Part shown: piece by piece, positions 3,999 to 20,000 of the stretch
Layout: each line of letters opens with the position of its first letter
Numbering within the stretch: the first letter of the stretch is position 1
IMG/VR virus record: IMGVR_UViG_3300035698_026597
DNA length: 20,000 bases
Reading direction: 5' to 3' (one strand)
DNA from: an uncultured virus (IMG/VR IMGVR_UViG_3300035698_026597)
Lineage: Duplodnaviria; Heunggongvirae; Uroviricota; Caudoviricetes
Notes under the pieces: model-generated
What the model was told of the DNA's origin: nothing
What the model saw: the letters and a program-made list of their open reading frames with translations, nothing else
The model's database searches: none
Translations under genes and position numbers: made by a program

Positions 3999-4748
3999 AT
4001 GAAGCCTATTATTCTTGGTATCTCCGGCGGGAAACAGTCGGGGAAGGATACGGTTGCGCAGTCACTGTTTGATTGGTATTACGGGAAGCCTCTGGTAACG
4101 CTTAATTCATGTTTGAAGTTTAGCTTTGCTACTCCTATCAAAGAGTTCTTGATAGGGGTGATGGGGTTGGATTACGATCAGTGTTGCGGAACGGATGAGG
4201 AGAAGAATAGCCCAACCAAGTACCTGTGGGATGACCTTCCATTTGAGATAAGAGTAAAAAACTCAATAGAAGATCATACGTTTGGCAATGGCGAGATACA
4301 GAGGTTGCCTCGTATCGGGCCCATTACAGGTAGAGAACTGATGCAGATAGTCGGCACGGATATTATGCGAAACATGTTTGACGATAAGGTATGGGTTAAT
4401 GCTTGTCTTAGTAGGATAAAGAATAAATTTGAGACAGCTCATCTTTCTCTGGCAATAATTTCAGATGTTAGGTTCGTGACTGAGGTAGATGCTATACTAT
4501 CAGAACCCAATGGGTACATGATACGTTTAACTAGAAGCCCCCACGATGATGTACATGCTAGTGAACATGACCTGGAAGGCTATAATTGGTTTTCAAGAGG
4601 CTTGCAGAAGTCGATGTTGGTTCATAATGACCTAATTGGGATCGAAAAAACCAACGATTTAGCTTTGCAGTTCATCTATCAATCATTGGCATATGAGGAA
4701 ATAAGGTATGACGCCGCTATCTCTGAAGTACCGTCCGAAAAAGCTTAG
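3999..4748 (+). CDS. deoxynucleoside monophosphate kinase (T4 gp1-like)
   Basis: P-loop GISGGKQSGKDT, SFATPIKE, RELMQIVGTDIMR, WVN, ISDVRFVTE and HASE are the typical phage dNMP kinase motifs; AGGAGG RBS. Confidence 0.88.
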   Translation: MKPIILGISGGKQSGKDTVAQSLFDWYYGKPLVTLNSCLKFSFATPIKEFLIGVMGLDYDQCCGTDEEKNSPTKYLWDDLPFEIRVKNSIEDHTFGNGEIQRLPRIGPITGRELMQIVGTDIMRNMFDDKVWVNACLSRIKNKFETAHLSLAIISDVRFVTEVDAILSEPNGYMIRLTRSPHDDVHASEHDLEGYNWFSRGLQKSMLVHNDLIGIEKTNDLALQFIYQSLAYEEIRYDAAISEVPSEKA

Positions 4749-5835
4749 TGAAGTTGTTGGGCAAGATGTCGTTGTAAGGATACTCTCTAATTCGTTTCAA
4801 AACAACAATCTTCATCACGCCTATATTATGGCTGGTAAGTTTGGTTGTGGAAAAACGACTACAGCTAGGATCTTGGCAGCAATGCTCAACTGCGATGACG
4901 GGCCCACTCTTGAGCCTTGCGGCACATGTAAAAACTGTAAAGAAATTTTTGAGGGTAAGTCTATTGATGTAAAAGAGATGGATGCGGCAAGCAATAGGGG
5001 CATAGACGAGATCAGGGAGCTTAAGAGGGATGTCCAGTATGCTCCTGTGTCTGGTGAATATAAGGTTATTGTTATTGACGAGGCACACAGTTTGACAAAG
5101 CAGGGGGCTGAAGCTCTGCTTAAGCAAATAGAAGAACCTCCTCCAAAGGTCATATTCATTCTATGCACTACAGAGCCAGAAGCGTTGAAGGATACGATTC
5201 ATAGTAGATGTATCCCGTTGACATTTCGCCCGATCCCTTGGACGAACATATACACTCATGTCATAAACGTAGCGAAAGCAGAATCTGTAGAGATAGAAGA
5301 CGCTGCTGTGAAGTTCTTGTCTAAAGCGTCGAAGGGTAGTGCAAGAAATGCTTTACAGAATTTACAGATGTCTATTGACTATTCTGGTGGGGAACCAATT
5401 ACTTTGGATCATGCACAAAAGGCAATTGGTAGCATAGATGATACGTTGTACTTTAAGCTGCTAAATGCGGTTTCTGAGGACAAGATTCCTGACGGGTGGA
5501 AAATAGTAAACGAGCTAATGCTTAGGGGGAGAAATGCCGAGAATATAGTTAAGGGTCTAGAAACCTATTTACGTAATCTTATGATTATACCACTATGTAA
5601 AGACTTGGCACCGAACATGGGATTTACGGAGAGCGAAGTAAAAATGTATTCCCACCAAGCAAAGACGATCAAACCAGTTTTGGCAAATGAAATGCTGAAG
5701 ATATTGGTGGAAGTACAGAGGGCGATAAAAGTGAACTTAGATCCTGAGAACTCTTTGCTTCGCTTTCTGATTGCTTCGATACTGATTAAGAAAAAGTTAG
5801 TGAAAAATAGCAAGAAGGTTGCCAAGAAAACATAA
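4708..5835 (+). CDS. dnaX: DNA polymerase III clamp-loader subunit gamma/tau (gamma-length, 375 aa)
   Basis: KYRP..VVGQ, HAY, Walker A GKFGCGKTT, zinc module LNC..PCGTCKNC, EMDAASNRGIDEIR, Walker B IDEAH, ALLKQIEEPP, SRC arginine finger, sensor 2 GSARNA. Confidence 0.95.
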   Translation: MTPLSLKYRPKKLSEVVGQDVVVRILSNSFQNNNLHHAYIMAGKFGCGKTTTARILAAMLNCDDGPTLEPCGTCKNCKEIFEGKSIDVKEMDAASNRGIDEIRELKRDVQYAPVSGEYKVIVIDEAHSLTKQGAEALLKQIEEPPPKVIFILCTTEPEALKDTIHSRCIPLTFRPIPWTNIYTHVINVAKAESVEIEDAAVKFLSKASKGSARNALQNLQMSIDYSGGEPITLDHAQKAIGSIDDTLYFKLLNAVSEDKIPDGWKIVNELMLRGRNAENIVKGLETYLRNLMIIPLCKDLAPNMGFTESEVKMYSHQAKTIKPVLANEMLKILVEVQRAIKVNLDPENSLLRFLIASILIKKKLVKNSKKVAKKT

Positions 5836-5847
5836 ACAGGAGAGAAA

Positions 5848-6600
5848 ATGGCCAGAGCCCGAAAGGTTCTGGTCGAGGCATCGAAAGAAGCTGTTGTAGG
5901 TTCTAAGAAGCAGCAACAAAAAGAAGAGCAAAAGAAGAGATCAATAAAGTATCTTGAGCTTGTAAACAAAGTAAGAAAGTCTAGGAGTACGGTAAGGTCG
6001 AATGATGCATTCAACGAGATCGTTAAACTTCTACGTACTAAACTTGAACAGATTTCTTACAAAGTCAAGATTCCTGGCTTTACGCACGACGACATCTATC
6101 AAGAAGCGTTATACGCTTTGCGTTATAAGGCTGTAAAGGATTATGACAAAGATAGGAGCACACAAACTGATATATCGCCGTTTGACAAGTTCGCAGTATT
6201 GTGTATAAGGAGGCATCTTTACACGAAACTTAAGTCGAGCTATCAGAACCGACAAAGAATATGGTTATGTTCCATAAGCCTCGACCAAGACAGGAATGGT
6301 TCTTCATCGGATGACGCACTGTTCCTAATAGACATTATAACAGATTCAAAATCAAGCATCTTGGATGACTTGGACAACAAGGAATACTATCGGCGTCTTT
6401 TCACGAAGTTGTTTGACAAATTGTCGGATTTTGAGAAAAGCGTGTTTTTGTTGTACTGCCAAAAATTATCCTATCAAGAGATTGTCGAGAAGATAAGACA
6501 AACTTATAGGGAAAAGACGAATGTAAAAAGCGTGGACAATGCCTTGTCTCGCATAAAACTGAAAGCTAAAGAAGTTTTCGATAAATTCGGAAATCGCTAA
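5848..6600 (+). CDS. SigH-like RNA polymerase sigma-70 family factor
   Basis: Region 2 DDIYQEA..FDKFAVLCIRR, ISLD, and region 4 LSDFEKSVFLLY..SYQEI..VKSVDNALSRIKLK closely follow Firmicute SigH (SYQEI..VKSIDNALQRVKRK); AGGAG RBS at 5838-5842. Confidence 0.85.
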   Translation: MARARKVLVEASKEAVVGSKKQQQKEEQKKRSIKYLELVNKVRKSRSTVRSNDAFNEIVKLLRTKLEQISYKVKIPGFTHDDIYQEALYALRYKAVKDYDKDRSTQTDISPFDKFAVLCIRRHLYTKLKSSYQNRQRIWLCSISLDQDRNGSSSDDALFLIDIITDSKSSILDDLDNKEYYRRLFTKLFDKLSDFEKSVFLLYCQKLSYQEIVEKIRQTYREKTNVKSVDNALSRIKLKAKEVFDKFGNR

Positions 6601-6643
6601 GATAGAAAGATGAACATTTCTTACATAAAGATATAGAAGTGAT

Positions 6644-6681
6644 TGCGCCGTACGTTATTATGATGTACGGCGTATATTTTT
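6644..6681 (+). terminator. candidate intrinsic terminator after the sigma gene
   Basis: TGCGCCGTACGTTA (6644-6657) pairs with TGATGTACGGCGTA (6661-6674): 14 bp including three G-U pairs and a 3-nt loop, followed by TATTTTT. Confidence 0.65.
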
Positions 6682-6717
6682 GAACTAACGGCAAATATAT
6701 GAAGAAGGGATTAAAAG

Positions 6718-7185
6718 ATGAAGATTCGAAAAGGTTTTGTTTCAAACAGTAGTACCTCAAGCTTTTGCATTATAGGCGTTCGGCTAGAGATGTCTAATCA
6801 AGATATGTGTAATAGGGTAAGAGTTAATCATCCAGATAAATTTATGGCTGAACGTGTTCGAACTTGTGTGCATGACACGGACACTTCTGCTACATATTGC
6901 TCGGTTTGTGGGAAAGAGATTTGGGAGAAGAGTGACTACGAGACTGAGGATTTTTCTACAGAGGAGCTTCTAGAATACCTTAGCACTGATACTATATCTG
7001 CCGCACAAGACGAAGAAGATGGTAGAGAATATGTAGGATTTGGTGCGCATGAATTTGAGGCACATCTTAAGGCGGGTAGAGACCCAATAGCAGAACTTGT
7101 CAAAGCTCTTAACGAGAGCGGTTTGGCAGGTCGCACAATAGAGGCAAAAGATATCCGAGTTGTTTCTGGAACCTATTCTTGTTAA
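6718..7185 (+). CDS. hypothetical protein of the 'MKxRxGFVSNSSxSSF' N-terminal motif family, with a possible zinc site
   Basis: N-terminus MKIRKGFVSNSSTSSF; internal CxH...CxxC (CVH..YCSVCG). Confidence 0.8.
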   Translation: MKIRKGFVSNSSTSSFCIIGVRLEMSNQDMCNRVRVNHPDKFMAERVRTCVHDTDTSATYCSVCGKEIWEKSDYETEDFSTEELLEYLSTDTISAAQDEEDGREYVGFGAHEFEAHLKAGRDPIAELVKALNESGLAGRTIEAKDIRVVSGTYSC

Positions 7186-10473: not shown

Positions 10474-11568
10474 ATGAGCGCGGAAGCCACAAAAGACTAT
10501 TACGAAGTTCTAGGCTTGAAGGAAGGCTCGTCTGCTGATTCTGTCAAGAAAGCCTATAGGCAGCTAGCGCTCAAACTCCATCCTGACAATTATAAGGGTG
10601 ACAAGTCGGAAGGGGAGGAGAAATTCAAAGAAGTTACAGAGGCTTATGAGACTCTTTCAGATCCTCATAAAAGAAGTAGGTACGATGCCAGGAAAATGTT
10701 TGTTGGTGATCCTTGGTTTACAGTAACTAGATCTAGACCTTTCAGCAAATACCCCAAGCGAGGAAGTGATGTGGGTATGGCTGTAGATGTCACGTTGAAG
10801 GATGTCTGCAAGGGGGATGTTGAAAAAGAGATAAAAGTTACAAGGATTGAAGAGTGTAGTAAATGTGATGGGACAGGTAAAAAAGATCGTTCTATACCAG
10901 AAGCTTCATGCAATAATTGTTCGGGGAAAGGACATGTTACACATTCTTCAAGAAACAATAATAGCAGGGGGCTATTCGCTCAGATTAGGTATACACAGGC
11001 TTGCCCGGCTTGCCAGGGGACAGGTGAATCTATACCTGAATGGAATAGATGCATATCGTGTGCGAAAGGGTCTGTGAGAAAAAGCAGGAAGATAAAGATC
11101 AAAATTCCACGTGGTGTACATAATGGACAGACAATACATTGTCGAGGTCTTGGTAACTGCGGAGAGAATGGCGGGACGTTTGGAGATCTTGTTGTCCTGG
11201 TAAGGGTGTCTGATGAAGCTGGATTCAAGAGGGATGGGCAGAACCTTCTTTGTGATTTTGAACTTCATATATCTGATTTCGCGCTGGGGGCGAAGAAAGA
11301 AATAGATACTATATATGATAATACTACATATGTTGTGATAGAACCAGGATCTCAAATAGGTGATGTTATACGAGTTAAGTGGTACGGTTGCCCTCAACTG
11401 AATAACAACAGCGTAAAAGGAGACATGCTAGTTAGGTTAACGGCTAGTATTCCCAAGAAACTTCGAGATAAAGAAAGAGAGCTTTTCATAAAGCTTAGAG
11501 AGCTTCACAACGGAGAAGAACATGACAATGAGAAAGAGGATCGAGTCGAAGTCGATCAAGACGATTAA
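10474..11568 (+). CDS. dnaJ: DnaJ chaperone (J domain + zinc finger + C-terminal domain, without a G/F-rich region)
   Basis: [37 protein letters not shown]; four CxxCxGxG-type repeats ([31 protein letters not shown]); [25 protein letters not shown]. Confidence 0.93.
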
Positions 11569-11755
11569 GACAGCAAACGGCTTCATAAAGGGACAGAAGT
11601 TCTATATGTCTGGGGATGTATGGACTGTTATCAAAGAAGAGAAAGCTGACAACACGGCTATGAGAAAGATCTCATCTAAAGACGGCGAAGAAGAGATTGT
11701 AGAATTGAAATCTTTAATTAGAGATCTTCAAGAGGGTCTTATCAAGATCATGTAA
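11522..11755 (+). CDS. hypothetical small beta-rich protein (start 11522 or 11528)
   Basis: GGAGAAG upstream; overlaps the dnaJ 3' end. Confidence 0.65.
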
Positions 11756-11962: not shown

Positions 11963-11974
11963 TCCAATTCGATA

Positions 11975-12014
11975 ATCTCTCCGATAATAGAAGTGAGGAA
12001 GTTATCGGAGAGGT
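11975..12014 (+). promoter_or_regulatory. RNA hairpin occluding the ruvC ribosome-binding site
   Basis: ATCTCTCCGATAAT (11975-11988) pairs with GTTATCGGAGAGGT (12001-12014): 11 contiguous Watson-Crick pairs, two G-U pairs and one A-U pair, with a 12-nt loop. The 3' arm contains GGAGAGG, which ends 4 nt before ATG 12018. Confidence 0.75.
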
Positions 12015-12017
12015 ACA

Positions 12018-12656
12018 ATGGCATCACAGAAAAAGGTTTATGTTGGCATAGATCCAGGGGTCCAGGGGGCAATAGCACTTATCTGGGCTGGTGGCGCAGA
12101 AGTTGAGCGCATGCCAATAATCAAATCATCTAAGACCGTCAAAGGCAAAAAGAAGAACAAGACGGAGCTTGACCTAGATGGTATTATTAAGCTTGTTAAA
12201 AGACTTAAGACATCATGTCGTCCAGCATCGGTTTTAGTGGGGATAGAAGCAGTTCATGCGGGACCGGGTGAAGGAAGTGTAAGTATGTTTGGTTTTGGCA
12301 AGGGATATGGTTTTCTTTTGGGCTCTGTTAAGATGGCAGGGTACTCTCTCACTAGTGTCTCTCCTCAAAAATGGAAGAAGTATTTTCCCAAATTGATGAC
12401 GAAAGACATCTTAGACATTAAGGATAGGCAAAAGGTTCTTAGACAGGAAATCAAAAATACCAAGGATGCCACCGAAAAGAAGGAGAAAAAGAAAGAGATA
12501 GAAAAGCTTGGTAGGAAAGCTAAATCCCTAGGCAAAGACAACGCTAGGGCTTTGGCTGGTGAGTTGTATCCTGAGTTGAAAGATAGCTTTAAGAAGAAAA
12601 ATAGTGATGGATTAGCAGAAGCCCTACTAATAGCTGAGTATGTCAGAGACCAATAA
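12018..12656 (+). CDS. ruvC: RuvC-like Holliday junction resolvase (phage type) with a basic helical insertion
   Basis: VGIDPG (Asp), IEAV (Glu), SMFGFGKGYG, VSPQKWKK, DGLAEALLIA (D..E). Confidence 0.85.
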   Translation: MASQKKVYVGIDPGVQGAIALIWAGGAEVERMPIIKSSKTVKGKKKNKTELDLDGIIKLVKRLKTSCRPASVLVGIEAVHAGPGEGSVSMFGFGKGYGFLLGSVKMAGYSLTSVSPQKWKKYFPKLMTKDILDIKDRQKVLRQEIKNTKDATEKKEKKKEIEKLGRKAKSLGKDNARALAGELYPELKDSFKKKNSDGLAEALLIAEYVRDQ

Positions 12657-12672
12657 CGGGAGTCGTAGCGAT

Positions 12673-13068
12673 ATGGGTAACTGGTACAAAATTGCGATAG
12701 TGGAGCTACATCCTTTGTTGAATCATGTAGACACTTTTAAAGACAGAAACATCATAAACGGCAAGATAAGAGAGCTTAAGGGGGTGGCCGCTAGGTTGCT
12801 AAATGTCTCTAAAGGTGGGTACCAGGACATACAAGAGTCTAGAACGATTCTATCAACTCTTATAGCGAATAAAACGCTTTCATCCTATCCTCATATTATT
12901 AGAAAGCTGGAAGCAGCTTTTAGTGTATCATTAGACAACTATGGTAAGATGATGTTTATGTGTGAGGATGCGATGGGTGATGTATATACAGTAGTAAGGA
13001 CCATGGAGAAAGCTAGAAGGGAGTTCGTCGAGAAAACCTTGCCAGAGAAGATGAAGGAGAAAAATTAG
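12673..13068 (+). CDS. hypothetical helical protein with an MGNWYKIA N-terminus (131 aa)
   Basis: Start moved from 12640 to ATG 12673 (GGGAG at 12658-12662, just after the ruvC stop). Confidence 0.75.
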   Translation: MGNWYKIAIVELHPLLNHVDTFKDRNIINGKIRELKGVAARLLNVSKGGYQDIQESRTILSTLIANKTLSSYPHIIRKLEAAFSVSLDNYGKMMFMCEDAMGDVYTVVRTMEKARREFVEKTLPEKMKEKN

Positions 13069-13069
13069 T

Positions 13070-13732
13070 ATGGCAAAGAACCAGTTACAGAAGTCGAATA
13101 CGAAGGCAATCACTAAGTCATCTTTACAATTGTATTCTGAGGGATTACAGAATACTCCGATGGATGTTAAAAGTTGTAAGGTTTGTCAGTCACAGCATAG
13201 GTTGAGAGGAGAGGCGGAGTTTGACAAAACAAACGGAAGCGTCAACGCTGCTTACACTCTATTAAAGCATCTTGGAGAAGACGTATCAAAGACGGGCGTT
13301 AGGAATCATATGCTTAGGCATTACGCTCCTTTGGTAAAAAAGGAAAAGATAGAGCTTTATTCCAAGGATCTTGCTGGCTATTTAAGTGCACAACAAGATA
13401 GGCGGTTGCAATTAAGGGAAAGAACATTTGTTTTGCAAAAGCTGATGTACGATTTGGCAGCAGACTCAGAGGGATGTAACCTAGAAGATAAGAGGAAAAA
13501 TGCTGACGTAATCAAAAAGCTTTCGGACGGTGTGACGGGGCTTGAGGATAAGATACAGGGTCTGGATAAGAGTCTGGAGCCTGTAGAGATCCTGATCGAG
13601 AGATTGGGAGATATCTTCTCTGGTAAAATGAAAGCCACAAAGGATGACGCAACAAAAACTGTCCTCATGGATATCTTAGCTGAGATACAAGCAAAAAGCC
13701 AAGACCTTTTCACTGAGGAAGACCCCGAATGA
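13070..13732 (+). CDS. hypothetical protein with a CxxC...HxxxH putative zinc/HTH domain and a coiled-coil C-terminus
   Basis: CKVCQSQHR...VSKTGVRNHMLRH; AAGGAG RBS. Confidence 0.75.
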   Translation: MAKNQLQKSNTKAITKSSLQLYSEGLQNTPMDVKSCKVCQSQHRLRGEAEFDKTNGSVNAAYTLLKHLGEDVSKTGVRNHMLRHYAPLVKKEKIELYSKDLAGYLSAQQDRRLQLRERTFVLQKLMYDLAADSEGCNLEDKRKNADVIKKLSDGVTGLEDKIQGLDKSLEPVEILIERLGDIFSGKMKATKDDATKTVLMDILAEIQAKSQDLFTEEDPE

Positions 13733-13872
13733 GAAAAAAGAGGCTCAAGTTGGCAAATAGACCGATTAAGAGACTCAAGGGAGATCGTCCAACAACAAAA
13801 CGTATTGTACCAGGTGGCTCGGAAAAAACTGGTGGATGCGGTTGTGGGCGTAAGAAAAAGAAGAAGTCTTAA
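13729..13872 (+). CDS. small basic protein with a CGCG motif (47 aa; absent from the ORF track)
   Basis: MRKKRLKLANRPIKRLKGDRPTTKRIVPGGSEKTGGCGCGRKKKKKS*. ATGA overlap with the upstream stop, GAGGA upstream, and the stop lies 2 nt before the next ATG, so it exactly fills the gap. Confidence 0.75.
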   Translation: MRKKRLKLANRPIKRLKGDRPTTKRIVPGGSEKTGGCGCGRKKKKKS

Positions 13873-13874
13873 TA

Positions 13875-16439
13875 ATGGAAAAATACTCTCAAATAGAAAG
13901 CATGTGCATGGTACACGTTGAGCAGGTAAAGCGCGCGCTTCTTTCTTATCGTGGATTGGCAAGAGAATATGCCGAATATCCAGAGAAAGTCCTCAAAGAT
14001 ATTGCAGAGCAAAGTATAGGTCAAAGGGTAATGTATTTCCCATGCGACCTTATAGAGCTTAGAGTGATTTTGGACTCTGGCGTTATCGATAGAGAAAACC
14101 CACCTATACTGTTTACTATGCCCTTCTGTCAAAAGTATCTGTCAGAGTATGCATTGTTGATTGGAGTGGAGATCCCAAAAGATTTTCGAGTTGTTGGTAG
14201 TATCTCCTTTTCCGCGAGCGATGATAAAGTCAACAGTGTGATAAACGTAGGCGAAGAGATTAGGACAGTTCTTCTTAGTGAAGGAATCGCTAGGGTGTTG
14301 AGCCCGCAGATCACTCAAATAGTTCAATCTACCAATAGGGGGATTTCTATAGGCCAGTTTTCTCAGTTGGCGAGTAAGACTCCAAAATTGGCAGCTACGC
14401 TTTCAGAACACCAAGTTAGCTTAACACCAGGTGAACAGCAACTGTTTTCTTTTTTGAATACGGCAGCAAGCACCCCAGAAATGTCTAATGTAGGGATAAG
14501 GGTGGCTGGAGGCTGGGTAAGAGATAAGCTCATGGGAAAAGAGAGCGATGATATCGATATCGCCCTTACGGGTATCTCAGGTACTGATTTTGCTAATTAT
14601 CTATCCTCCTACGCTAAACAGAACGGGGTTAGTGATGTTGGCGGTTCTTTCCAGATCAGCCTGGACAAAAGTTCGGACCCTAAGGCTACTGAGGTAGTGA
14701 ATGAACTTGAGGTAGGTGGATTGTCTATTTTCGGAGACAGGATAGAGTTTGTAGAAGCTAGAAAAGAAAGCTATCCAAATCCCAACTCAAGGAAACCTGT
14801 TATTGTCCCTACAGATGATATCACAGAAGATGTAAAGAGAAGGGATCTGACAATCAATGCGCTTTACTATAATGTAAGGACAGGTGAGGTAGAAGATTAT
14901 ACCAGTGGAATAGAAGATCTAAAGAATATGATACTTAGGGCACCTGATGACCCTAGGAAGACCTTCTCTGAAGACCCATTAAGGCTTCTCAGAGCCATCA
15001 GGTTCTATGCTCGCTACCCAAATGCCCAACTGGACCCTTCTATAATAGAGTTGCTTAGAGAGACGGGACAGCCTAACACGGAGATGGGCAAGATGTATGA
15101 GCAAAAGATAGCTCCTAGCAGGTCTTCCAAAGAATTCATTAAGATGATGAAGGGGGCCAATCCTGAGAAGGCGATACGGACTCTTTTCGAGACAGGATTC
15201 TATCGTAGGGTATTTGAGATCCCGGAAGATTGGTATCCTATCGAGATGGATCAACAGAGCAAGTATCATAGGCTAACGTTGCTTGACCATACGATGAGCG
15301 TTATTGAGAATATAAACAAGTTGGCGGCAGAAAAGGATCTTCCAGAAGAAGACAGAACCAAATTGCTTTTATCTGCTATGTTTCATGACTTCGGCAAGAT
15401 GCACCCAGATATAAGAGAAGAGCACCCTAAGATGCCAGGAAGGTTCAGGTACGTAGGGCATGAAGCTGAATCTGGTAAGTTTGTGGAACAGATCATGAAG
15501 AGGATGTCTTTCCCAGAGAAGCTTCGTAAATCTGTATCTTCGATTGTCTCTGCTCACATGGAGCCTAATAAGTTCTCTGATGAATTTGAAGGGGCTGGCA
15601 AGAAGAGAGGGACCATATATGGTAGATATGGTAAATTCCTTAGAGAGCATGGTGAGAATGAGAAGCTTGTTATGTTGCTTAGACAGGCTGATCACTCCAG
15701 TAAGGGTGGTAGTACGGAAGAGGAGCTTGATGACATAAGACAACAGAATGAGGCTTTGCAAGGTAGACTTTCTCAATATCAGCAAGAAAGCATGCACCCG
15801 GATTATGGCGCTTTATACTCGAATCCCATATTGAGGGGAGACGAGGTTATCGCTCTTCTTCCTCAAGTGAGTCCTCAACTGGAACAGGACCTTCGCGCCC
15901 AGAATAACAAGTTCTTTGTAACTAATGCTTTCACTGGTGGTATGCCTATGCACTGGGTAAAGTATACTTTGGAGCAATTGCTTAAGCAGCAGCAAAAGCA
16001 CAGGGTATTACAAAGGGAAGATGCCGAAGATTTTGCAATAGGTATTATGAAGCAGATATTTAGTGAGACTATTAGACAGCTACCGGTGGAAGATATGGGG
16101 CAAGAGGCTTCAAATTGGTATAAGCAAGTAAAACAGGCAGATGCCAGTTCCGCGGAGGGTCCAGAAGGATTCGACAATCTCGGGAATGGTGACGCCCTGC
16201 ATGAGGACCAGTTCCCAAGAGTCGTATACGAGGTAGAGCCTCCTTTCCATGTCGGAGATCAGGTGAGGGAAAAACGAGGCGGTATCGGAGATCCACCGGC
16301 AGCCCAGGGAACCGTAATCGAAGTTGGGGGTAATAGGATGAGGGTGAAGTGGGAAAGTGGAAAACGAAAAGGCAAGGTTACGTCTGTTAGTTTAATGGAT
16401 GCCGCCATGCTATCGGCTACATTTGAGAAAGTTATGTAA
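13875..16439 (+). CDS. cca: class II CCA tRNA nucleotidyltransferase with HD domain, a long N-terminal extension and a C-terminal SH3-like module
   Basis: RVAGGWVRDKLMG..DDIDIA (DxD), ARKESY, EDVKRRDLTINALYY, FSEDPLRLLRAIRF (EDxxR templating motif); HD domain YH..DHT..FHDFGK..GHE..HM; C-terminal FHVGDQVRE..GTVIEV..MRVKWE. Confidence 0.88.
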   Translation: MEKYSQIESMCMVHVEQVKRALLSYRGLAREYAEYPEKVLKDIAEQSIGQRVMYFPCDLIELRVILDSGVIDRENPPILFTMPFCQKYLSEYALLIGVEIPKDFRVVGSISFSASDDKVNSVINVGEEIRTVLLSEGIARVLSPQITQIVQSTNRGISIGQFSQLASKTPKLAATLSEHQVSLTPGEQQLFSFLNTAASTPEMSNVGIRVAGGWVRDKLMGKESDDIDIALTGISGTDFANYLSSYAKQNGVSDVGGSFQISLDKSSDPKATEVVNELEVGGLSIFGDRIEFVEARKESYPNPNSRKPVIVPTDDITEDVKRRDLTINALYYNVRTGEVEDYTSGIEDLKNMILRAPDDPRKTFSEDPLRLLRAIRFYARYPNAQLDPSIIELLRETGQPNTEMGKMYEQKIAPSRSSKEFIKMMKGANPEKAIRTLFETGFYRRVFEIPEDWYPIEMDQQSKYHRLTLLDHTMSVIENINKLAAEKDLPEEDRTKLLLSAMFHDFGKMHPDIREEHPKMPGRFRYVGHEAESGKFVEQIMKRMSFPEKLRKSVSSIVSAHMEPNKFSDEFEGAGKKRGTIYGRYGKFLREHGENEKLVMLLRQADHSSKGGSTEEELDDIRQQNEALQGRLSQYQQESMHPDYGALYSNPILRGDEVIALLPQVSPQLEQDLRAQNNKFFVTNAFTGGMPMHWVKYTLEQLLKQQQKHRVLQREDAEDFAIGIMKQIFSETIRQLPVEDMGQEASNWYKQVKQADASSAEGPEGFDNLGNGDALHEDQFPRVVYEVEPPFHVGDQVREKRGGIGDPPAAQGTVIEVGGNRMRVKWESGKRKGKVTSVSLMDAAMLSATFEKVM

Positions 16440-16945
16440 TGTGGTATGTGAGGGCAAAAACAGGTCTATCTAAGGAGGAACTCAACGAGAAGTTGAAGTC
16501 CTTTATCCGTGACTCTGCATTCTTTCACAAGATGTTTGATGACTACGGAATCTCTATGGATAGGATAGACAATGATTTGCATTTCCATTTGGAGCCGTTA
16601 GACGGGATGCATGCTAGGAGTAAGGGTAAGGATGTTTTTCTTGATGATGAGCTATTCAAAGATGGCGACTTTTTTGAGGACAAGATTCATTTCGTTGTGC
16701 ACGAGATGAGCCATTGGCTCACTAGACTTAGGGAAAATGATTGCTATTTTGCTGATCCAGAAGAGATAGAGGCTTTTACTCTTGGAATGGCGTATGAACT
16801 TCTAAAGGGTAGGGGAGAGAGAGAAGTAGCTAAGTTGTTTTTCCCGATCATATCTAAACACTTAAAAATATCAGAGAACGCGGATGTTCTTTTTGGGTCT
16901 CTACTTACAAAGGCTAAGATCAGAGTCAAGAGATTCGGAATATAG
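16439..16945 (+). CDS. zincin-like (HExxH...E) metallopeptidase domain protein
   Basis: VVHEMSHWL followed by DPEEIEAF; TAATG coupling to the cca stop. Confidence 0.7.
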   Translation: MWYVRAKTGLSKEELNEKLKSFIRDSAFFHKMFDDYGISMDRIDNDLHFHLEPLDGMHARSKGKDVFLDDELFKDGDFFEDKIHFVVHEMSHWLTRLRENDCYFADPEEIEAFTLGMAYELLKGRGEREVAKLFFPIISKHLKISENADVLFGSLLTKAKIRVKRFGI

Positions 16946-16951
16946 TATTCT

Positions 16952-16981
16952 GGAGGACATTTCCTCTTACATAGCGAATAA
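16952..16981 (+). promoter_or_regulatory. SigH-type promoter candidate
   Basis: GG-AGGA-CAT-N12-AGC-GAAT-AA versus the B. subtilis sigmaH consensus RNAGGAWWW-N11/12-RNNGAAT; lies in the intergenic gap before ATG 17009. Confidence 0.6.
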
Positions 16982-17008
16982 AAGTACAACAGAGTACGGG
17001 ATTTCGTT

Positions 17009-17719
17009 ATGCGCACACTTAAGGTGAAGCGGTTTATACAGGACAGAGCTTTCTGTGCCGTAGCAGCTTGTGCCTCAGTCGTAAACTTTTATGACGACTC
17101 TTGGGATTATGAGAACGTCAAAAAGAAAGCTATTGAATTTTTCCCATCGCTTAAAGCTGGTGAGGGGCTATATACCCCTGAGACTGGTAGGCTTCTTAAC
17201 GTGCTGGGTATGAGAAAAGTGACTATAGTCTCTACAGATCTTAATTTTCTTGACTATACGTGGGCTTTATATGGCAAACGTAAGATGTTGTCTTGTTTCA
17301 AGGAAAGCGTGAAAAAGAATAAGGGATACAGAAGCATAGCTAAAAGCTATATCAGGTTCTTGGAAGATAATCACTTCGATAACCACCTAGTCATTGATTA
17401 TAATTTCGCGGATAGGATAAGGAAAGCTATAGACAGTGACAAGCCAGTAATGGCATCTTTTAACTGGACAATGTTCTTCAAATTCGGCAAGATCAATGAA
17501 AAGGGTGATCAAGATCCGTATAAGGGAGACTATGAAGATCATATGATTGTGATCAAAGGGTATACGAAGAATTCAGTTTCCATTGTTGACTCTCACAATG
17601 ATTACTACAAATATAAAAGAAAAAGCTATAGATCAGGCGAATATAAGATACCTTGGGAGATTTTTATGACGATACTCGGAACAGGGGATTTACTAATAGC
17701 GGAAGACTATGGGAACTAA
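17009..17719 (+). CDS. papain-fold cysteine protease, C39-like
   Basis: FIQDRAFCAVAAC (oxyanion Gln plus catalytic Cys), KAIDSDKPV, EDHMIVIKGY (His), IVDS (Asp); standalone, with no ABC-transporter domain. Confidence 0.75.
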   Translation: MRTLKVKRFIQDRAFCAVAACASVVNFYDDSWDYENVKKKAIEFFPSLKAGEGLYTPETGRLLNVLGMRKVTIVSTDLNFLDYTWALYGKRKMLSCFKESVKKNKGYRSIAKSYIRFLEDNHFDNHLVIDYNFADRIRKAIDSDKPVMASFNWTMFFKFGKINEKGDQDPYKGDYEDHMIVIKGYTKNSVSIVDSHNDYYKYKRKSYRSGEYKIPWEIFMTILGTGDLLIAEDYGN

Positions 17720-18059
17720 CTGGTATAGATTGTGTAAAAGAGCATTCAACCAAACCACAGAGTCTTTGGCTAGGCTTATAATCCAAATTGACCAAACAGG
17801 CGAAACAGAAGCTATCTCAGGGGAATTGCAACATATCGTTTCTGCTATAGACCAAACAGCGTTGGAGGTATCGATTCGAGAGGCTATGAGTCTTGTTTCA
17901 CAACAAGCGAATAGGGATCTTAGTGATGCGACCTCAAAATTGGTCGGAATGATACGCAGCTTGTTGCAGACCAACATGATGTCGCAGGAGGTAGGAGAAT
18001 ATGATGAACCCGCTCCAGATGCTAACATCATTCAGCAAGAACCTGACGGACAGCAGTAA
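17709..18059 (+). CDS. hypothetical helical protein with an MGTNWYRLCKRA N-terminus (116 aa)
   Basis: GGAAG upstream; 11-nt overlap with the protease gene. Confidence 0.7.
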   Translation: MGTNWYRLCKRAFNQTTESLARLIIQIDQTGETEAISGELQHIVSAIDQTALEVSIREAMSLVSQQANRDLSDATSKLVGMIRSLLQTNMMSQEVGEYDEPAPDANIIQQEPDGQQ

Positions 18060-18360
18060 AAAGTTTGTTGTAGGTTCACATTCTCTTTTCGATATTGGCA
18101 TGGCAGATTCCGTATTTGACTTCAATGTAGAACTGTGCGAAAATATCAGGCGATTCTGCCGAGAAGAATATCTGTTAGAGATAGACAAGATATTGTATCT
18201 GGTCACTATGGATGCGGATGAATTATCTAAGGATGATAGTCACAAATCAGACAGTACATCGTTTATACATATAGTGAGAGAAGGAGAAGACGATGATGCT
18301 AGATACATAGCCTTGGTTTTCTTCGGAGAAAAAATAGAAAGAGCAGAAGCGGGTGACTGA
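18001..18360 (+). CDS. hypothetical protein (119 aa)
   Basis: Strong AGGAGG/AGGAG upstream of ATG 18001/18004. Confidence 0.7.
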   Translation: MMNPLQMLTSFSKNLTDSSKKFVVGSHSLFDIGMADSVFDFNVELCENIRRFCREEYLLEIDKILYLVTMDADELSKDDSHKSDSTSFIHIVREGEDDDARYIALVFFGEKIERAEAGD

Positions 18361-18395
18361 CCCAATGGTACAGTGTGACTATGGGAGCTAGAACA

Positions 18396-18608
18396 ATGAG
18401 AGACGGCTTAAAGATATTGTACGGAATAGCTATTTTCTTGGTTTTGTTTTTCGGACCATTTATTTGTTTATGGATGTTGAATACACTTGTATTGGCTCAT
18501 ATTCCAGGAGCGATGTTGATCCCTTACCTGTTTGGGACAGAGGAATGGCTTGCAATGCTAATCCTTGTGAGTGGGTCAGTCCTTGCGGTTGTCACAGAAA
18601 AACATTAA
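18396..18608 (+). CDS. small membrane protein (two hydrophobic segments)
   Basis: Start moved to ATG 18396 (GGGAG at 18383-18387); hydrophobic ILYGIAIFLVLFFGPFICLWML and WLAMLILVSGSVLAVV. Confidence 0.65.
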   Translation: MRDGLKILYGIAIFLVLFFGPFICLWMLNTLVLAHIPGAMLIPYLFGTEEWLAMLILVSGSVLAVVTEKH

Positions 18609-18680
18609 CTATTTACAAAGGGAAAGTTTGGCGTAAGCTTTAATATGTGTGGAAAGCCTCGTTGTACTGAGTTACTTGTT

Positions 18681-19334
18681 ATGCCTATGAAAAAAATATT
18701 GTTCGAAGGAACATTCGATCCACCGCACTTTGGACACCTTAATTCAGCTATTTTTGCTAAAGAGAAAATAGGGGCAGATGAGGTTATCTTCATCCCGAAA
18801 GCGCACCCAGAGATAGAACCATGGCATCCGGTTCTATCTTTTTATCGTGTAAGCTTTCTCAATATCTATTTGTATGAACATGGTGATGAAAGTATGTACG
18901 TTGAGACAGAAGAGGCGATGACAGATGGAGTAAGCCTTACGATAGATGTTATCAAACGATGTCTTGATAGGCATAAGGAAGAAGATGTAGAGTGGTATTT
19001 CCTTATGGGGGAGGACAAGATCATACCAGCATGCACTTGGAAGAACTGTAGCGAGATAAGCGATTTTATGGCTAGCTCTATTGTGTTATGCTGTCCAGTA
19101 TGCGGGAGAGGAAAAAGGTACTGGGAGGAAAACGGTTTAACTTGCCATTTAGATCTTCATCCAAATTGTATATTTACACATTCTATTCTTATAGATAACG
19201 AAGCATGTTCTCATGTCACTTGTGAGGAGTTGAGGGGAGCCTTGGGGAGAGGAGATCTAACGAACCCAATACTAGAAAAGATGTTCCACCCAGATGTATT
19301 AAGCTCTATTATAAGGCATCATCTCTATGTCTAG
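18681..19334 (+). CDS. nadD: NadD-like nicotinate/nicotinamide mononucleotide adenylyltransferase (HxGH nucleotidyltransferase), divergent
   Basis: GTFDPPHFGHL, VIFIP, SLTIDVI (cf. SYTIDTL), YFLMGED..TWKN, C-terminal V..II.H.LY. Start uncertain (18645, 18681 or 18687). Confidence 0.75.
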   Translation: MPMKKILFEGTFDPPHFGHLNSAIFAKEKIGADEVIFIPKAHPEIEPWHPVLSFYRVSFLNIYLYEHGDESMYVETEEAMTDGVSLTIDVIKRCLDRHKEEDVEWYFLMGEDKIIPACTWKNCSEISDFMASSIVLCCPVCGRGKRYWEENGLTCHLDLHPNCIFTHSILIDNEACSHVTCEELRGALGRGDLTNPILEKMFHPDVLSSIIRHHLYV

Positions 19335-19855
19335 AGATTGATGACCTCTTCGAAGGGGTTCCTCTTGATGTAATCTTGTTCAGCCTGTTCTGCTGGTCCT
19401 TCTCCACCAACAAACTCTCTCTGCTCACTCAAGGAACCTAGATGCCCATGTCCTCCAGCCCCAGAATTCCCTTCATGTGCAAGAATCCTGCCTATCTCGT
19501 AAAGAATGATTTGAGTGGTATGTTCGTCGGTTACGTCATGTCCAGCAGATGTTAGTTGCGCTACAAGATCCTGAACTTGCTCTTTCAAGGCTACCATATT
19601 GACGTAGATGGTGTGTCCTCTTTGATTGCTTACCCATCCAAGTGCACCAGGCTTTGTATCAACGATAATATCGGTTACGCCCGATAGGGCTCCTGGCGAT
19701 GATTGCTGATAGGCGCTGACGGCTTGACTAAGGATGTTGTCGTAAGGCTGTATATGGACTGTGGGCCCGCCAAGGAACTCTGTATGCTCTCCTTGTTCTT
19801 CTTCTGTCTGGAATGGCATCTCCTGAGCGTATTTTTTCAGGTTGAATTTAGGCAT
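19331..19855 (-). CDS. hypothetical protein, zincin-like fold with an interrupted HExxH motif and an MPKFNLKKYAQ N-terminus
   Basis: LGWV..HTIYVN..ILAHEGNSGAGGHGH..GGEGPAEQAE; AGGA RBS at 19868-19865; the only clear minus-strand gene. Confidence 0.75.
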   Translation of the reverse strand: MPKFNLKKYAQEMPFQTEEEQGEHTEFLGGPTVHIQPYDNILSQAVSAYQQSSPGALSGVTDIIVDTKPGALGWVSNQRGHTIYVNMVALKEQVQDLVAQLTSAGHDVTDEHTTQIILYEIGRILAHEGNSGAGGHGHLGSLSEQREFVGGEGPAEQAEQDYIKRNPFEEVINL

Positions 19856-19896
19856 AGTATATTTTCCTGTACGGTAGTGAGTACATATATATTACA

Positions 19897-19926
19897 ATAT
19901 TGTCATGGAGACAAGGTATATCCTCT
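19897..19926 (-). promoter_or_regulatory. SigH-type promoter candidate for the minus-strand gene
   Basis: Minus strand reads AG-AGGA-TAT-N12-TGA-CAAT-AT: same 18-nt AGGA-to-xAAT spacing as the 16952 site, with one core mismatch (C for G). Confidence 0.45.
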
Positions 19927-19941
19927 ACTAAGGAGCAAAAA

Positions 19942-20000
19942 ATGCGCAGCATACATATTGTAGAAGAGACATTGCCGCGGGCGTGGGAACGAGCAGTAAT
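19942..20000 (+). CDS. 3'-partial CDS (MRSIHIVEETLPRAWERAV...), possibly thymidylate synthase-like
   Basis: AAGGAG at 19930-19935 and an open frame to the window end. TLPxAWExA resembles N-termini of archaeal-type ThyA-like proteins, but only 19 residues are visible. Confidence 0.5.
   Translation, partial: MRSIHIVEETLPRAWERAV

Follow-up and report, generated by a model that had tools for sequence, protein, structure and literature searches.

The stretch of DNA analysed here, 20,000 nucleotides of an uncultured virus of the Caudoviricetes (IMG/VR record IMGVR_UViG_3300035698_026597; hereafter the window), raises the question of why several proteins with nothing else in common begin with nearly the same few residues, and what this short peptide, called the tag below, does for the phage. 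In the window the tag takes the form MG(x)NWY[K/R]. It appears as MGNWYKIA at the N-terminus of a protein of 131 residues (12673..12696, plus strand), as MGQEASNWYKQVKQA at the junction of a CCA-adding enzyme and its C-terminal module (16095..16139, plus strand), as MWYVRAK (16439..16459, plus strand) and as MGTNWYRLCKRA (17709..17744, plus strand). All four core sites lie where the initial annotation of this DNA had placed them, the second being in frame inside the open reading frame (ORF) of the CCA-adding enzyme. The window is related to the region 250-275 kb of a complete 461-kb viral contig with terminal repeats (G004) and to L015/G005 (G005 is a fragment of 219 kb), both by gene order and by protein similarity (23-53% identity). 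The orthologs of the MWYVRAK protein start with MSWYKQANNK in G004 and with MNWFKESSNN in L015, and the third copy is therefore regarded as a true but decayed one.

It had been suggested that three NWY[KR] copies near a methionine within such a short distance were unlikely to arise by chance, and the counts bear this out. The six-frame translation of the window contains exactly three such strings, at 12679, 16113 and 17718, all in the coding frame and no more than six residues from a methionine, a residue found within the six preceding ones at only 16% of positions; no further copy exists in the rest of the window, as the initial annotation had noted for the replication and nucleotide genes of its left half. 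Composition predicts 0.011 copies in the 6,577 coding residues, and among 2,000 residue shuffles 20 gave one copy and none gave two or more. The census for the phage from which the window comes covers these 20 kb. The codons of the tag vary among the window copies (AAC/AAT, TAC/TAT, AAA/AAG/AGA) and the DNA upstream of the copies is unrelated, which indicates that conservation acts at the level of the peptide and not of the DNA. The four carriers are also dissimilar beyond the first dozen residues, as had been claimed: BLASTP of the 12673 protein against the 17709 protein gave E 0.037, resting on the N-terminus, and the 16095 and 17709 proteins gave no alignment.

The first carrier (12673..13068, plus strand), conserved beside a RuvC-like gene, is a 131-residue protein predicted to form a helical bundle. 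Its two database homologs (99% and 66% identical) start with MGNWYK and not at the upstream ATG 12640, and its orthologs start with MGWYKYAK, MSWYKYSK, MNWYKQAQ and MNWYKRAQ. In an alignment with six homologs (26-66% identity), M1, W4, Y5 and K6 are invariant, and the tag is retained while the remaining protein drops to 26-34% identity. The AlphaFold2 model has a mean confidence (pLDDT) of 81.5, with a helical bundle spanning residues 22-122. Since residues 1-11 score below 50 and lie unpacked on this confident bundle, the model suggests that the tag is a free peptide outside the fold. Foldseek matched the model to generic four-helix bundles only (best E 0.27), no close relatives of the 12673 and 17709 proteins were found in viral contigs, and the ESM Atlas returned no usable feature match.

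The second carrier is a C-terminal module of 114 residues (16095..16439, plus strand) in an ORF of 854 residues (13875..16439, plus strand), the preceding part of which is a CCA-adding (tRNA nucleotidyltransferase) enzyme with an HD domain (Pfam PolyA_pol, 2e-24, and HD, 1e-8; PHROG 2244, 7.6e-54). In the module M1, W8, Y9 and K13 are invariant at 26-29% identity, and the orthologous junctions of enzyme and module read MTANWYGKVKVS and MSTSWYDKIKTS. The sequence GGTGGA, similar to a Shine-Dalgarno site, and an ATG lie within the ORF at 16085..16097 (plus strand). Three orthologs all keep the in-frame ATG with such a site 4-10 nucleotides upstream (GGTGGA, AGGAG and AGGAG), and the residues encoded there differ. 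This conservation suggests that the module is also made separately: the 16085..16097 element is probably the internal start of a nested gene comprising the last 103-114 codons of the ORF (16085-16439 in the window, from 12041 in L014 and from 12203 in L015).

The third carrier (16439..16945, plus strand) is a protein of 168 residues with a zincin-like H-E-x-x-H motif, of which H88, E89 and H92 are invariant in the alignment; it matches no Pfam family. The fourth (17709..18059, plus strand) is an orphan of 116 residues. An exhaustive phmmer search over 1.84 billion representatives gave a single hit for it, a repetitive protein of 587 residues, which is considered spurious.

The tag is far from confined to the window. 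The DNA pattern of NWYK, run against ten related phage records, gave 67 hits, compared with 8 for a reversed control. Among 109 distinct NWYK matches, 82 follow an ATG directly and have at least 30 open codons, five have a methionine one to six residues upstream, 11 are internal or follow GTG or TTG, and 11 are closed after a short distance. In G004 alone NWYK occurs 13 times (0.41 expected); no other word of four residues is as over-represented in its 712 ORFs as MNWY, and there are about 20 tagged ORFs when variants such as MSWYK, MGWYK, MNWYL and MFNWFK are included. Altogether, in viral and metagenome contigs, the tag was found on 225 distinct ORFs in 136 BLAST families, a number of families that may be over-split, many of the ORFs ending at 150 residues because of the retrieved flank. 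After removal of the first ten residues, 89 tagged ORFs still formed 72 BLAST families. A search with the DNA pattern of MGNWYKxA also revealed a 328-residue HExxH protein starting with MGNWYKRAK in two large viral contigs.

Searches with the pattern MNWYKxAQ found 44 stretches in viral contigs, where 44 of the 46 distinct ORFs are long. Metagenome contigs gave at least 135, and of the 157 matches there only three are closed before 40 residues. In 596 Gb of prokaryote genomes there were 12 stretches, about 17 being expected by chance, and seven of the 12 ORFs are closed at 27 residues or fewer. The tag is thus restricted to viral sequence. The NWYR pattern in five relatives gave four hits against three in the reversed control, and the three hits with their context read lie in frames filled with stops. 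In a 115-kb contig (G001; L006, L009 and L012), all six NWYK codon strings stand behind a start codon; three open long ORFs, and the other three are stopped after 8-30 codons. In L012 the stop is TAA and an open frame resumes behind it. These early-stopped starts may represent decaying genes, assembly errors or recoding.

The consensus of the tag is eight N-terminal residues, M-N-W-Y-K-x-[A/S]-[Q/K]. Of an unbiased set of 59 tags, 39 have A and 13 have S at position 7, while 36 have Q and eight have K at position 8; no position after residue 8 is conserved, and neither Glu nor Gly-Gly occurs. The carriers have a median length of 152 residues and are mostly single-domain proteins. A few copies of the tag stand at domain junctions within the protein; in G004, two PcfJ proteins that start with MNWYL bear a second NWYK some 110-140 residues before their C-terminus. 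Pfam names ten of the 47 carriers of the first scan, namely G6PD, PcfJ, AAA_33 kinase, DUF5661, cREC_REC, ART-PolyVal (29.4 bits, below the Pfam cut-off of 31.2), Tad6, methyltransferase, SLT and GNAT. The named carriers of G004 are the two PcfJ proteins, DUF5661, an SLT protein with a membrane helix, GNAT, ART-PolyVal, two multi-HTH proteins and DUF4325; the window contributes the helical bundle, the CCA module, the HExxH protein and the orphan. A tagged protein of 141 residues in L053 (502-924, minus strand) matches Pfam Tad6 with 4.5e-35. Tad6 is the inhibitor of type I Thoeris, and by this match the L053 protein would be an anti-defence protein bearing an address peptide.

This diversity, together with the counts, bears on the simplest explanations. 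That the motif is due to chance, or is the relic of one ancestral gene family diverged past recognition, has only the shortness of the motif in its favour. It is refuted by the excess in the window and in G004 given above, and a relic is also at odds with carriers of mutually non-homologous folds (G6PD, GNAT, P-loop kinase, SLT, HTH), so that this explanation deserves practically no credence. An action of the conserved start on translation, either as an mRNA element at the start codon or as a nascent-peptide effect, would fit the 82 matches that begin exactly at the start codon and the dominance of one codon set within a genome, e.g. AACTGGTATAAA in G006 and AATTGGTATAAA in G015. It is nevertheless very improbable, since synonymous codons vary among copies and genomes, orthologs exchange K for R (AGA), N for S or G and Y for F, the window copies tolerate prefixes of one to six residues, some in-frame internal copies lack a methionine, and the upstream DNA is unconserved. 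The tag is a modular element, and it is under selection at the level of the peptide.

The complete carrier genomes are 296-548 kb long, and their portal proteins are 51-70% identical to the portal of G004. By sequence comparison, they make up one clade of uncultured megaphages related to Bacillus phage G. At least 121 relatives of the capsid protein were found in viral contigs, the 80 best of them being 71-100% identical. Phage G is the closest cultured phage (portal 32% and capsid protein 55% identical). Its genome contains no M-x-W-Y-K start, and WYK occurs there at the control level, 37 against 37. A literature search on the motif and on a cleavage or targeting code of megaphages found no description of the tag, and a jumbo-phage review of 2026 contains no occurrence of 'targeting sequence', 'prohead protease' or 'propeptide'.

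A clue to the function comes from the second half of the tag, aromatic-x-K-x-A-[S/Q], a motif that is also enriched in the head proteins of G004. In the head region of this genome (54-100 kb) K-x-A-[S/Q] was observed 28 times against 7.0 expected, a four-fold excess, whereas the stretch at 100-181 kb, with the tail genes, has nine against 8.5 and the rest of the genome 35 against 38.8. A protein of 1834 residues, termed here the protease-scaffold protein, has ten sites against 1.34 expected (p 1.6e-6), and 70 of its orthologs have on average 10.1 sites against 1.54 expected (6.6-fold). In 38 orthologs with a mean column identity of 40%, K34/A36, K264, Q902 and K1173 are invariant and S37, A266, K687, A801, K899, A901 and A1175 are at least 90% conserved. 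The N-terminus of this protein carries h-x-K-x-A in the register of the tag in three of the six orthologs viewed and one residue earlier in a fourth. The tag and the head proteins have a motif in common, and the tag's W3-Y4-K5-x-A7-Q8 is therefore an N-terminal instance of it. The initial annotation had asked whether the scaffold, portal and major capsid proteins carry KxA sites; in G004 the scaffold has K-x-A-[S/Q], the portal has only two such sites (0.34 expected) and the major capsid protein has none. The putative protease domain of the protease-scaffold protein, roughly its first 260 residues, is assigned only by a match to PHROG 18299 (3.4e-8) and by 35% identity to phage G gp19. A complex prediction combining the N-terminal 400 residues of this protein with 40-residue tag peptides scored 0.00; it was run without controls and carries no weight either way. 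As a separate observation, the protein (74390-79894 in G004; L152:14390-19891) contains five copies of E-[TV]-I-T-E-[DK]-Q-[LW] in residues 470-600, its remainder is long, acidic and of low complexity, and some homologs contain inteins.

These features point to a capsid-targeting and processing peptide analogous to the capsid-targeting sequence (CTS) of phage T4, a reading to which we assign a probability of about one half. According to it, the clade related to phage G would place a portable address peptide of about eight residues before many unrelated accessory proteins. The giant protease-scaffold protein, as the core of head assembly, would recognise the aromatic-x-K-x-A-[S/Q] part of the tag, and the tagged protein would become part of the prohead. 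The head-maturation protease would then probably trim the tag at K-x-A, and with the following infection the cargo would reach the host together with the DNA. The steps from recognition by the head core through cleavage and packaging to injection are inferred. In its widest form, one eight-residue 'zip code' would give a large collection of freely exchangeable proteins, from enzymes and regulators to anti-defence proteins, entry to the capsid, to be injected ready-made, with any gene behind the tag becoming cargo, in at least 136 families across a clade of phages of 300-550 kb with about 20 such genes per genome; this extension is more tentative than the targeting function itself.

The analogy has definite limits. 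As described in two papers (PMC3012670, PMC5694885), the T4 CTS is an N-terminal peptide of 10-20 residues, the sole feature common to the internal proteins (and Alt), a diverse and rapidly changing group of small accessory and anti-defence proteins; it guides these to the scaffolding core, and the head protease gp21 cuts it off. The proteases of T4, phiKZ and SPN3US cut after Glu, at A-X-E and similar sites (PMC5694885). Like the CTS, the tag is a short N-terminal peptide common to unrelated proteins (eight residues in at least 136 families), and the motif of the head protease-scaffold protein is part of it. Unlike the CTS, to which it has no sequence similarity, it lacks Glu, the candidate site being K-x-A-[S/Q], and its set of carriers, much the larger of the two, extends to metabolic and regulatory proteins. 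The cargo also overlaps with that of the polyvalent proteins, which, according to Iyer et al. 2017 (PMC5512222), combine two to 15 disparate domains in one chain and are predicted to be injected early with the phage DNA. ART-PolyVal, metallopeptidase, kinase, GNAT, pol-beta nucleotidyltransferase, methylase and peptidoglycan hydrolase domains occur in both sets, whereas the carriers described here are mostly single-domain proteins, each with a tag of its own, and fusions are few (e.g. PcfJ with an internal tag).

A putative protease fused to a long scaffold with repeated small-residue candidate sites recalls the herpesvirus assemblin and HK97-type arrangements. Assemblin cleaves at Ala-Ser sites. 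Here, in difference to these systems, the protease is assigned only by the PHROG match and the similarity to gp19. Encapsulin cargo-loading peptides are likewise short and terminal and load unrelated enzymes into an HK97-fold shell; they bind the shell protein and are not removed, whereas the capsid protein here has no site of the motif. Double-glycine leaders are cut by C39 peptidases that are fused to an ABC exporter; they do not resemble the tag, which has no Gly-Gly, and the C39-like protein of the window has no transporter domain.

That C39-like protein introduces another explanation, in which the tag, instead of being a packaging signal, would serve in the cytoplasm for docking to or processing by another phage or host factor, e.g. 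papain-fold peptidases, a chaperone or a phage assembly hub; this factor would activate, localise or coordinate the accessory proteins. A papain-fold peptidase of 236 residues is encoded between the tagged genes of the window (17009..17719, plus strand; Pfam Peptidase_C39_2, 3.6e-9). Its orthologs in G004 and L015 (45-47% identity) occupy the same place, and it is a possible alternative processing enzyme for the tag. In G004 a papain-family C1 peptidase gene, split by an intein with an HNH domain (4581-6659; L149), heads an operon running into an array of four tagged genes, and a weak C1 match stands beside a tagged gene in L041. The tag is moreover aromatic and basic, as are general chaperone-binding peptides. 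Peptidases of the C1 and C39 types were also considered as general neighbours of the tagged arrays, but the adjacency was seen in three places only and the idea was dropped. The DnaJ of the window (10474-11568), considered as a receptor of the tag, was likewise dropped, having no homolog in G004 or L015. A loose chaperone motif is hard to reconcile with the strict W-Y-K, which argues for one specific receptor, and docking in the cytoplasm leaves unexplained the enrichment and conservation of K-x-A-[S/Q] specific to head-assembly proteins. We consider docking unlikely, though still the strongest competitor of capsid targeting.

An N-terminal degradation signal that gives its carriers a timed short life through a host or phage AAA+ protease is improbable. 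The position of the tag at the extreme N-terminus and its predicted lack of structure would suit such a signal, and its polar-aromatic-aromatic-basic order resembles one class of N-terminal ClpX recognition signals. In addition, ClpP and ClpX encoded by the phage are reported in the preprint on phage G. However, W, Y and K are nearly invariant, whereas degrons are usually degenerate, and neither the internal copies at domain junctions nor the motif in head proteins would be expected.

Several observations weigh directly against capsid targeting and have to be set beside the evidence for it. Many carriers seem to belong in the cytoplasm, some of them plainly (G6PD, the multi-HTH proteins, the CCA-enzyme module), and with a kinase these speak for docking instead; the tagged genes of the window lie within a replication and nucleotide module. 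The full K5-x-A7-[S/Q]8 is present in only 28 of the 59 unbiased tags, and in the window K-x-A is followed by I, D or F and not by S or Q. Among the head proteins, the absence of sites from the major capsid protein and their low number in the portal count on the same side, and the ten scaffold sites of G004 are unevenly conserved, K-x-A being present in from five of 70 up to 57 of 69 orthologs. The protease domain has no Pfam match and no PDB sequence match. In phage G, K-x-A is enriched in 21 head-region proteins (13 against 3.3) and yet the phage has no tag; the code therefore needs no tag and predates it. Finally, the tagged clade consists of uncultured phages.

Gene position and putative promoters bear on capsid targeting in both directions. 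Three promoter-like classes were found in G004. The motif A[AT]A[AG]AGG[AT][AT] marks 30 of its 228 unit heads, 16 of them within 59-124 kb, where the head genes and the first of the tail genes lie. Unit heads leading to tagged genes make up seven of the 30 with the motif and seven of the 198 without it (Fisher p 6e-4, odds ratio 8.3), and about half of the tagged genes stand behind this motif, so late expression of the tagged genes in G004 is possible. Against this, the motif was chosen post hoc in one genome and does not stand beside the tagged genes in G013, G011 and G012; its transfer as a late-type motif to G013, G011, G012, G015 and G006 failed. Tagged genes of G004 directly follow TerL, in ten other records tagged genes share the strand of the major capsid gene and stand 0.1-5.7 kb downstream of it, and in 80 capsid-centred loci all 23 real hits are on the downstream side of the capsid gene. 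The density of the tag near the capsid gene nevertheless equals the genome average (25 in 881 kb), which again tells against a head address.

Two promoter-like sequences of G004 are recorded as observations in their own right. The word TTGCCAGAGTG has 52 exact copies, 51 within 340-428 kb and one, on the minus strand, at 42.8 kb; most are followed by a run of A and TTATAG-like bases, and most stand upstream of small genes. It looks like a phage-specific promoter class. A separate sigma-A-like class, TTGAAAGTGAT followed by TATAAT-like bases, has 25 exact copies. The left end of this genome bears an ORF of 450 residues (714-2066) consisting largely of Ser runs, and the proteome contains SSSS 287 times where 4.2 copies would be expected.

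In the window itself the genes, those of a very large phage, are packed tightly on the plus strand, and their products include topoisomerase I, dNMP kinase, clamp loader, clamp, DnaJ, RuvC-like resolvase, CCA-adding enzyme, C39-like peptidase and cytidylyltransferase. Its part 12001-20000 had no DNA match among GenBank phages, and a 60-nucleotide stretch from its end had none in metagenome contigs. A promoter scan of the window remained at the chance level (48 found, 40.4 expected). A strong terminator-like hairpin of 14 pairs followed by a T run lies at 6644-6674 and is the sole clear one in the window. The sequence ATAGAAGTGA, repeated in the intergenic regions 6601-6717 and 11963-12017, may be a promoter element.

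Some further proteins of the window had been counted as possible members of the tag system. The proposed looser variant MPKFNLKKYAQ, at the start of a minus-strand gene (19331..19855), has no W-Y core, its protein has no ortholog in G004 or L015, and on present evidence it is outside the system. The K-x-A ends of basic N-termini pointed out at 11522 and 13729 did not hold up either, [KR]-x-A being present in the first 16 residues six times in 29 window proteins against 3.6 expected. The protein at 11522-11755 had no match in G004 or L015, nor had the 47-residue ORF at 13729-13872, for which a blank carries little weight at such a length. This ORF is rich in Lys and Arg at both ends, has a central Gly-Cys run and has no family in Pfam or PHROGs. 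The T4-like sorting signal of the initial annotation, with cleavage at K/R-x-A and injected cargo, is thus supported in part, by the portable N-terminal tag, the motif shared with head proteins, the overlap of the cargo and the promoter-like motif of G004, and loses these looser sites. The window gene 6718-7185 starts with MKIRKGFVSNSS and belongs to the MKIR-type starts, which occur 15 times in G004 ORFs against 1.1 expected in the forms MKIRN, MKIRQ, MKIRK and MKIRE. This second over-represented start may mark a paralog family rather than a tag.

The CTS strategy of T4 is already known; a fixed N-terminal M-N-W-Y-K-x-A-Q over more than 130 accessory families is new. If the tag is a head address, it provides a list, obtained from sequence only, of the proteins that uncultured megaphages carry into their hosts, and this list would include anti-defence proteins such as the Tad6 homolog and ADP-ribosyltransferases. 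It would also mean that the strategy of a CTS with diverse internal proteins arose independently, on a larger scale and with a different protease code, and its eight residues would offer a candidate means of bringing foreign proteins into very large capsids. A peptide heading more than 100 unrelated families must bind one specific partner even if packaging is the wrong interpretation, and finding this partner would reveal a hub of megaphage biology.

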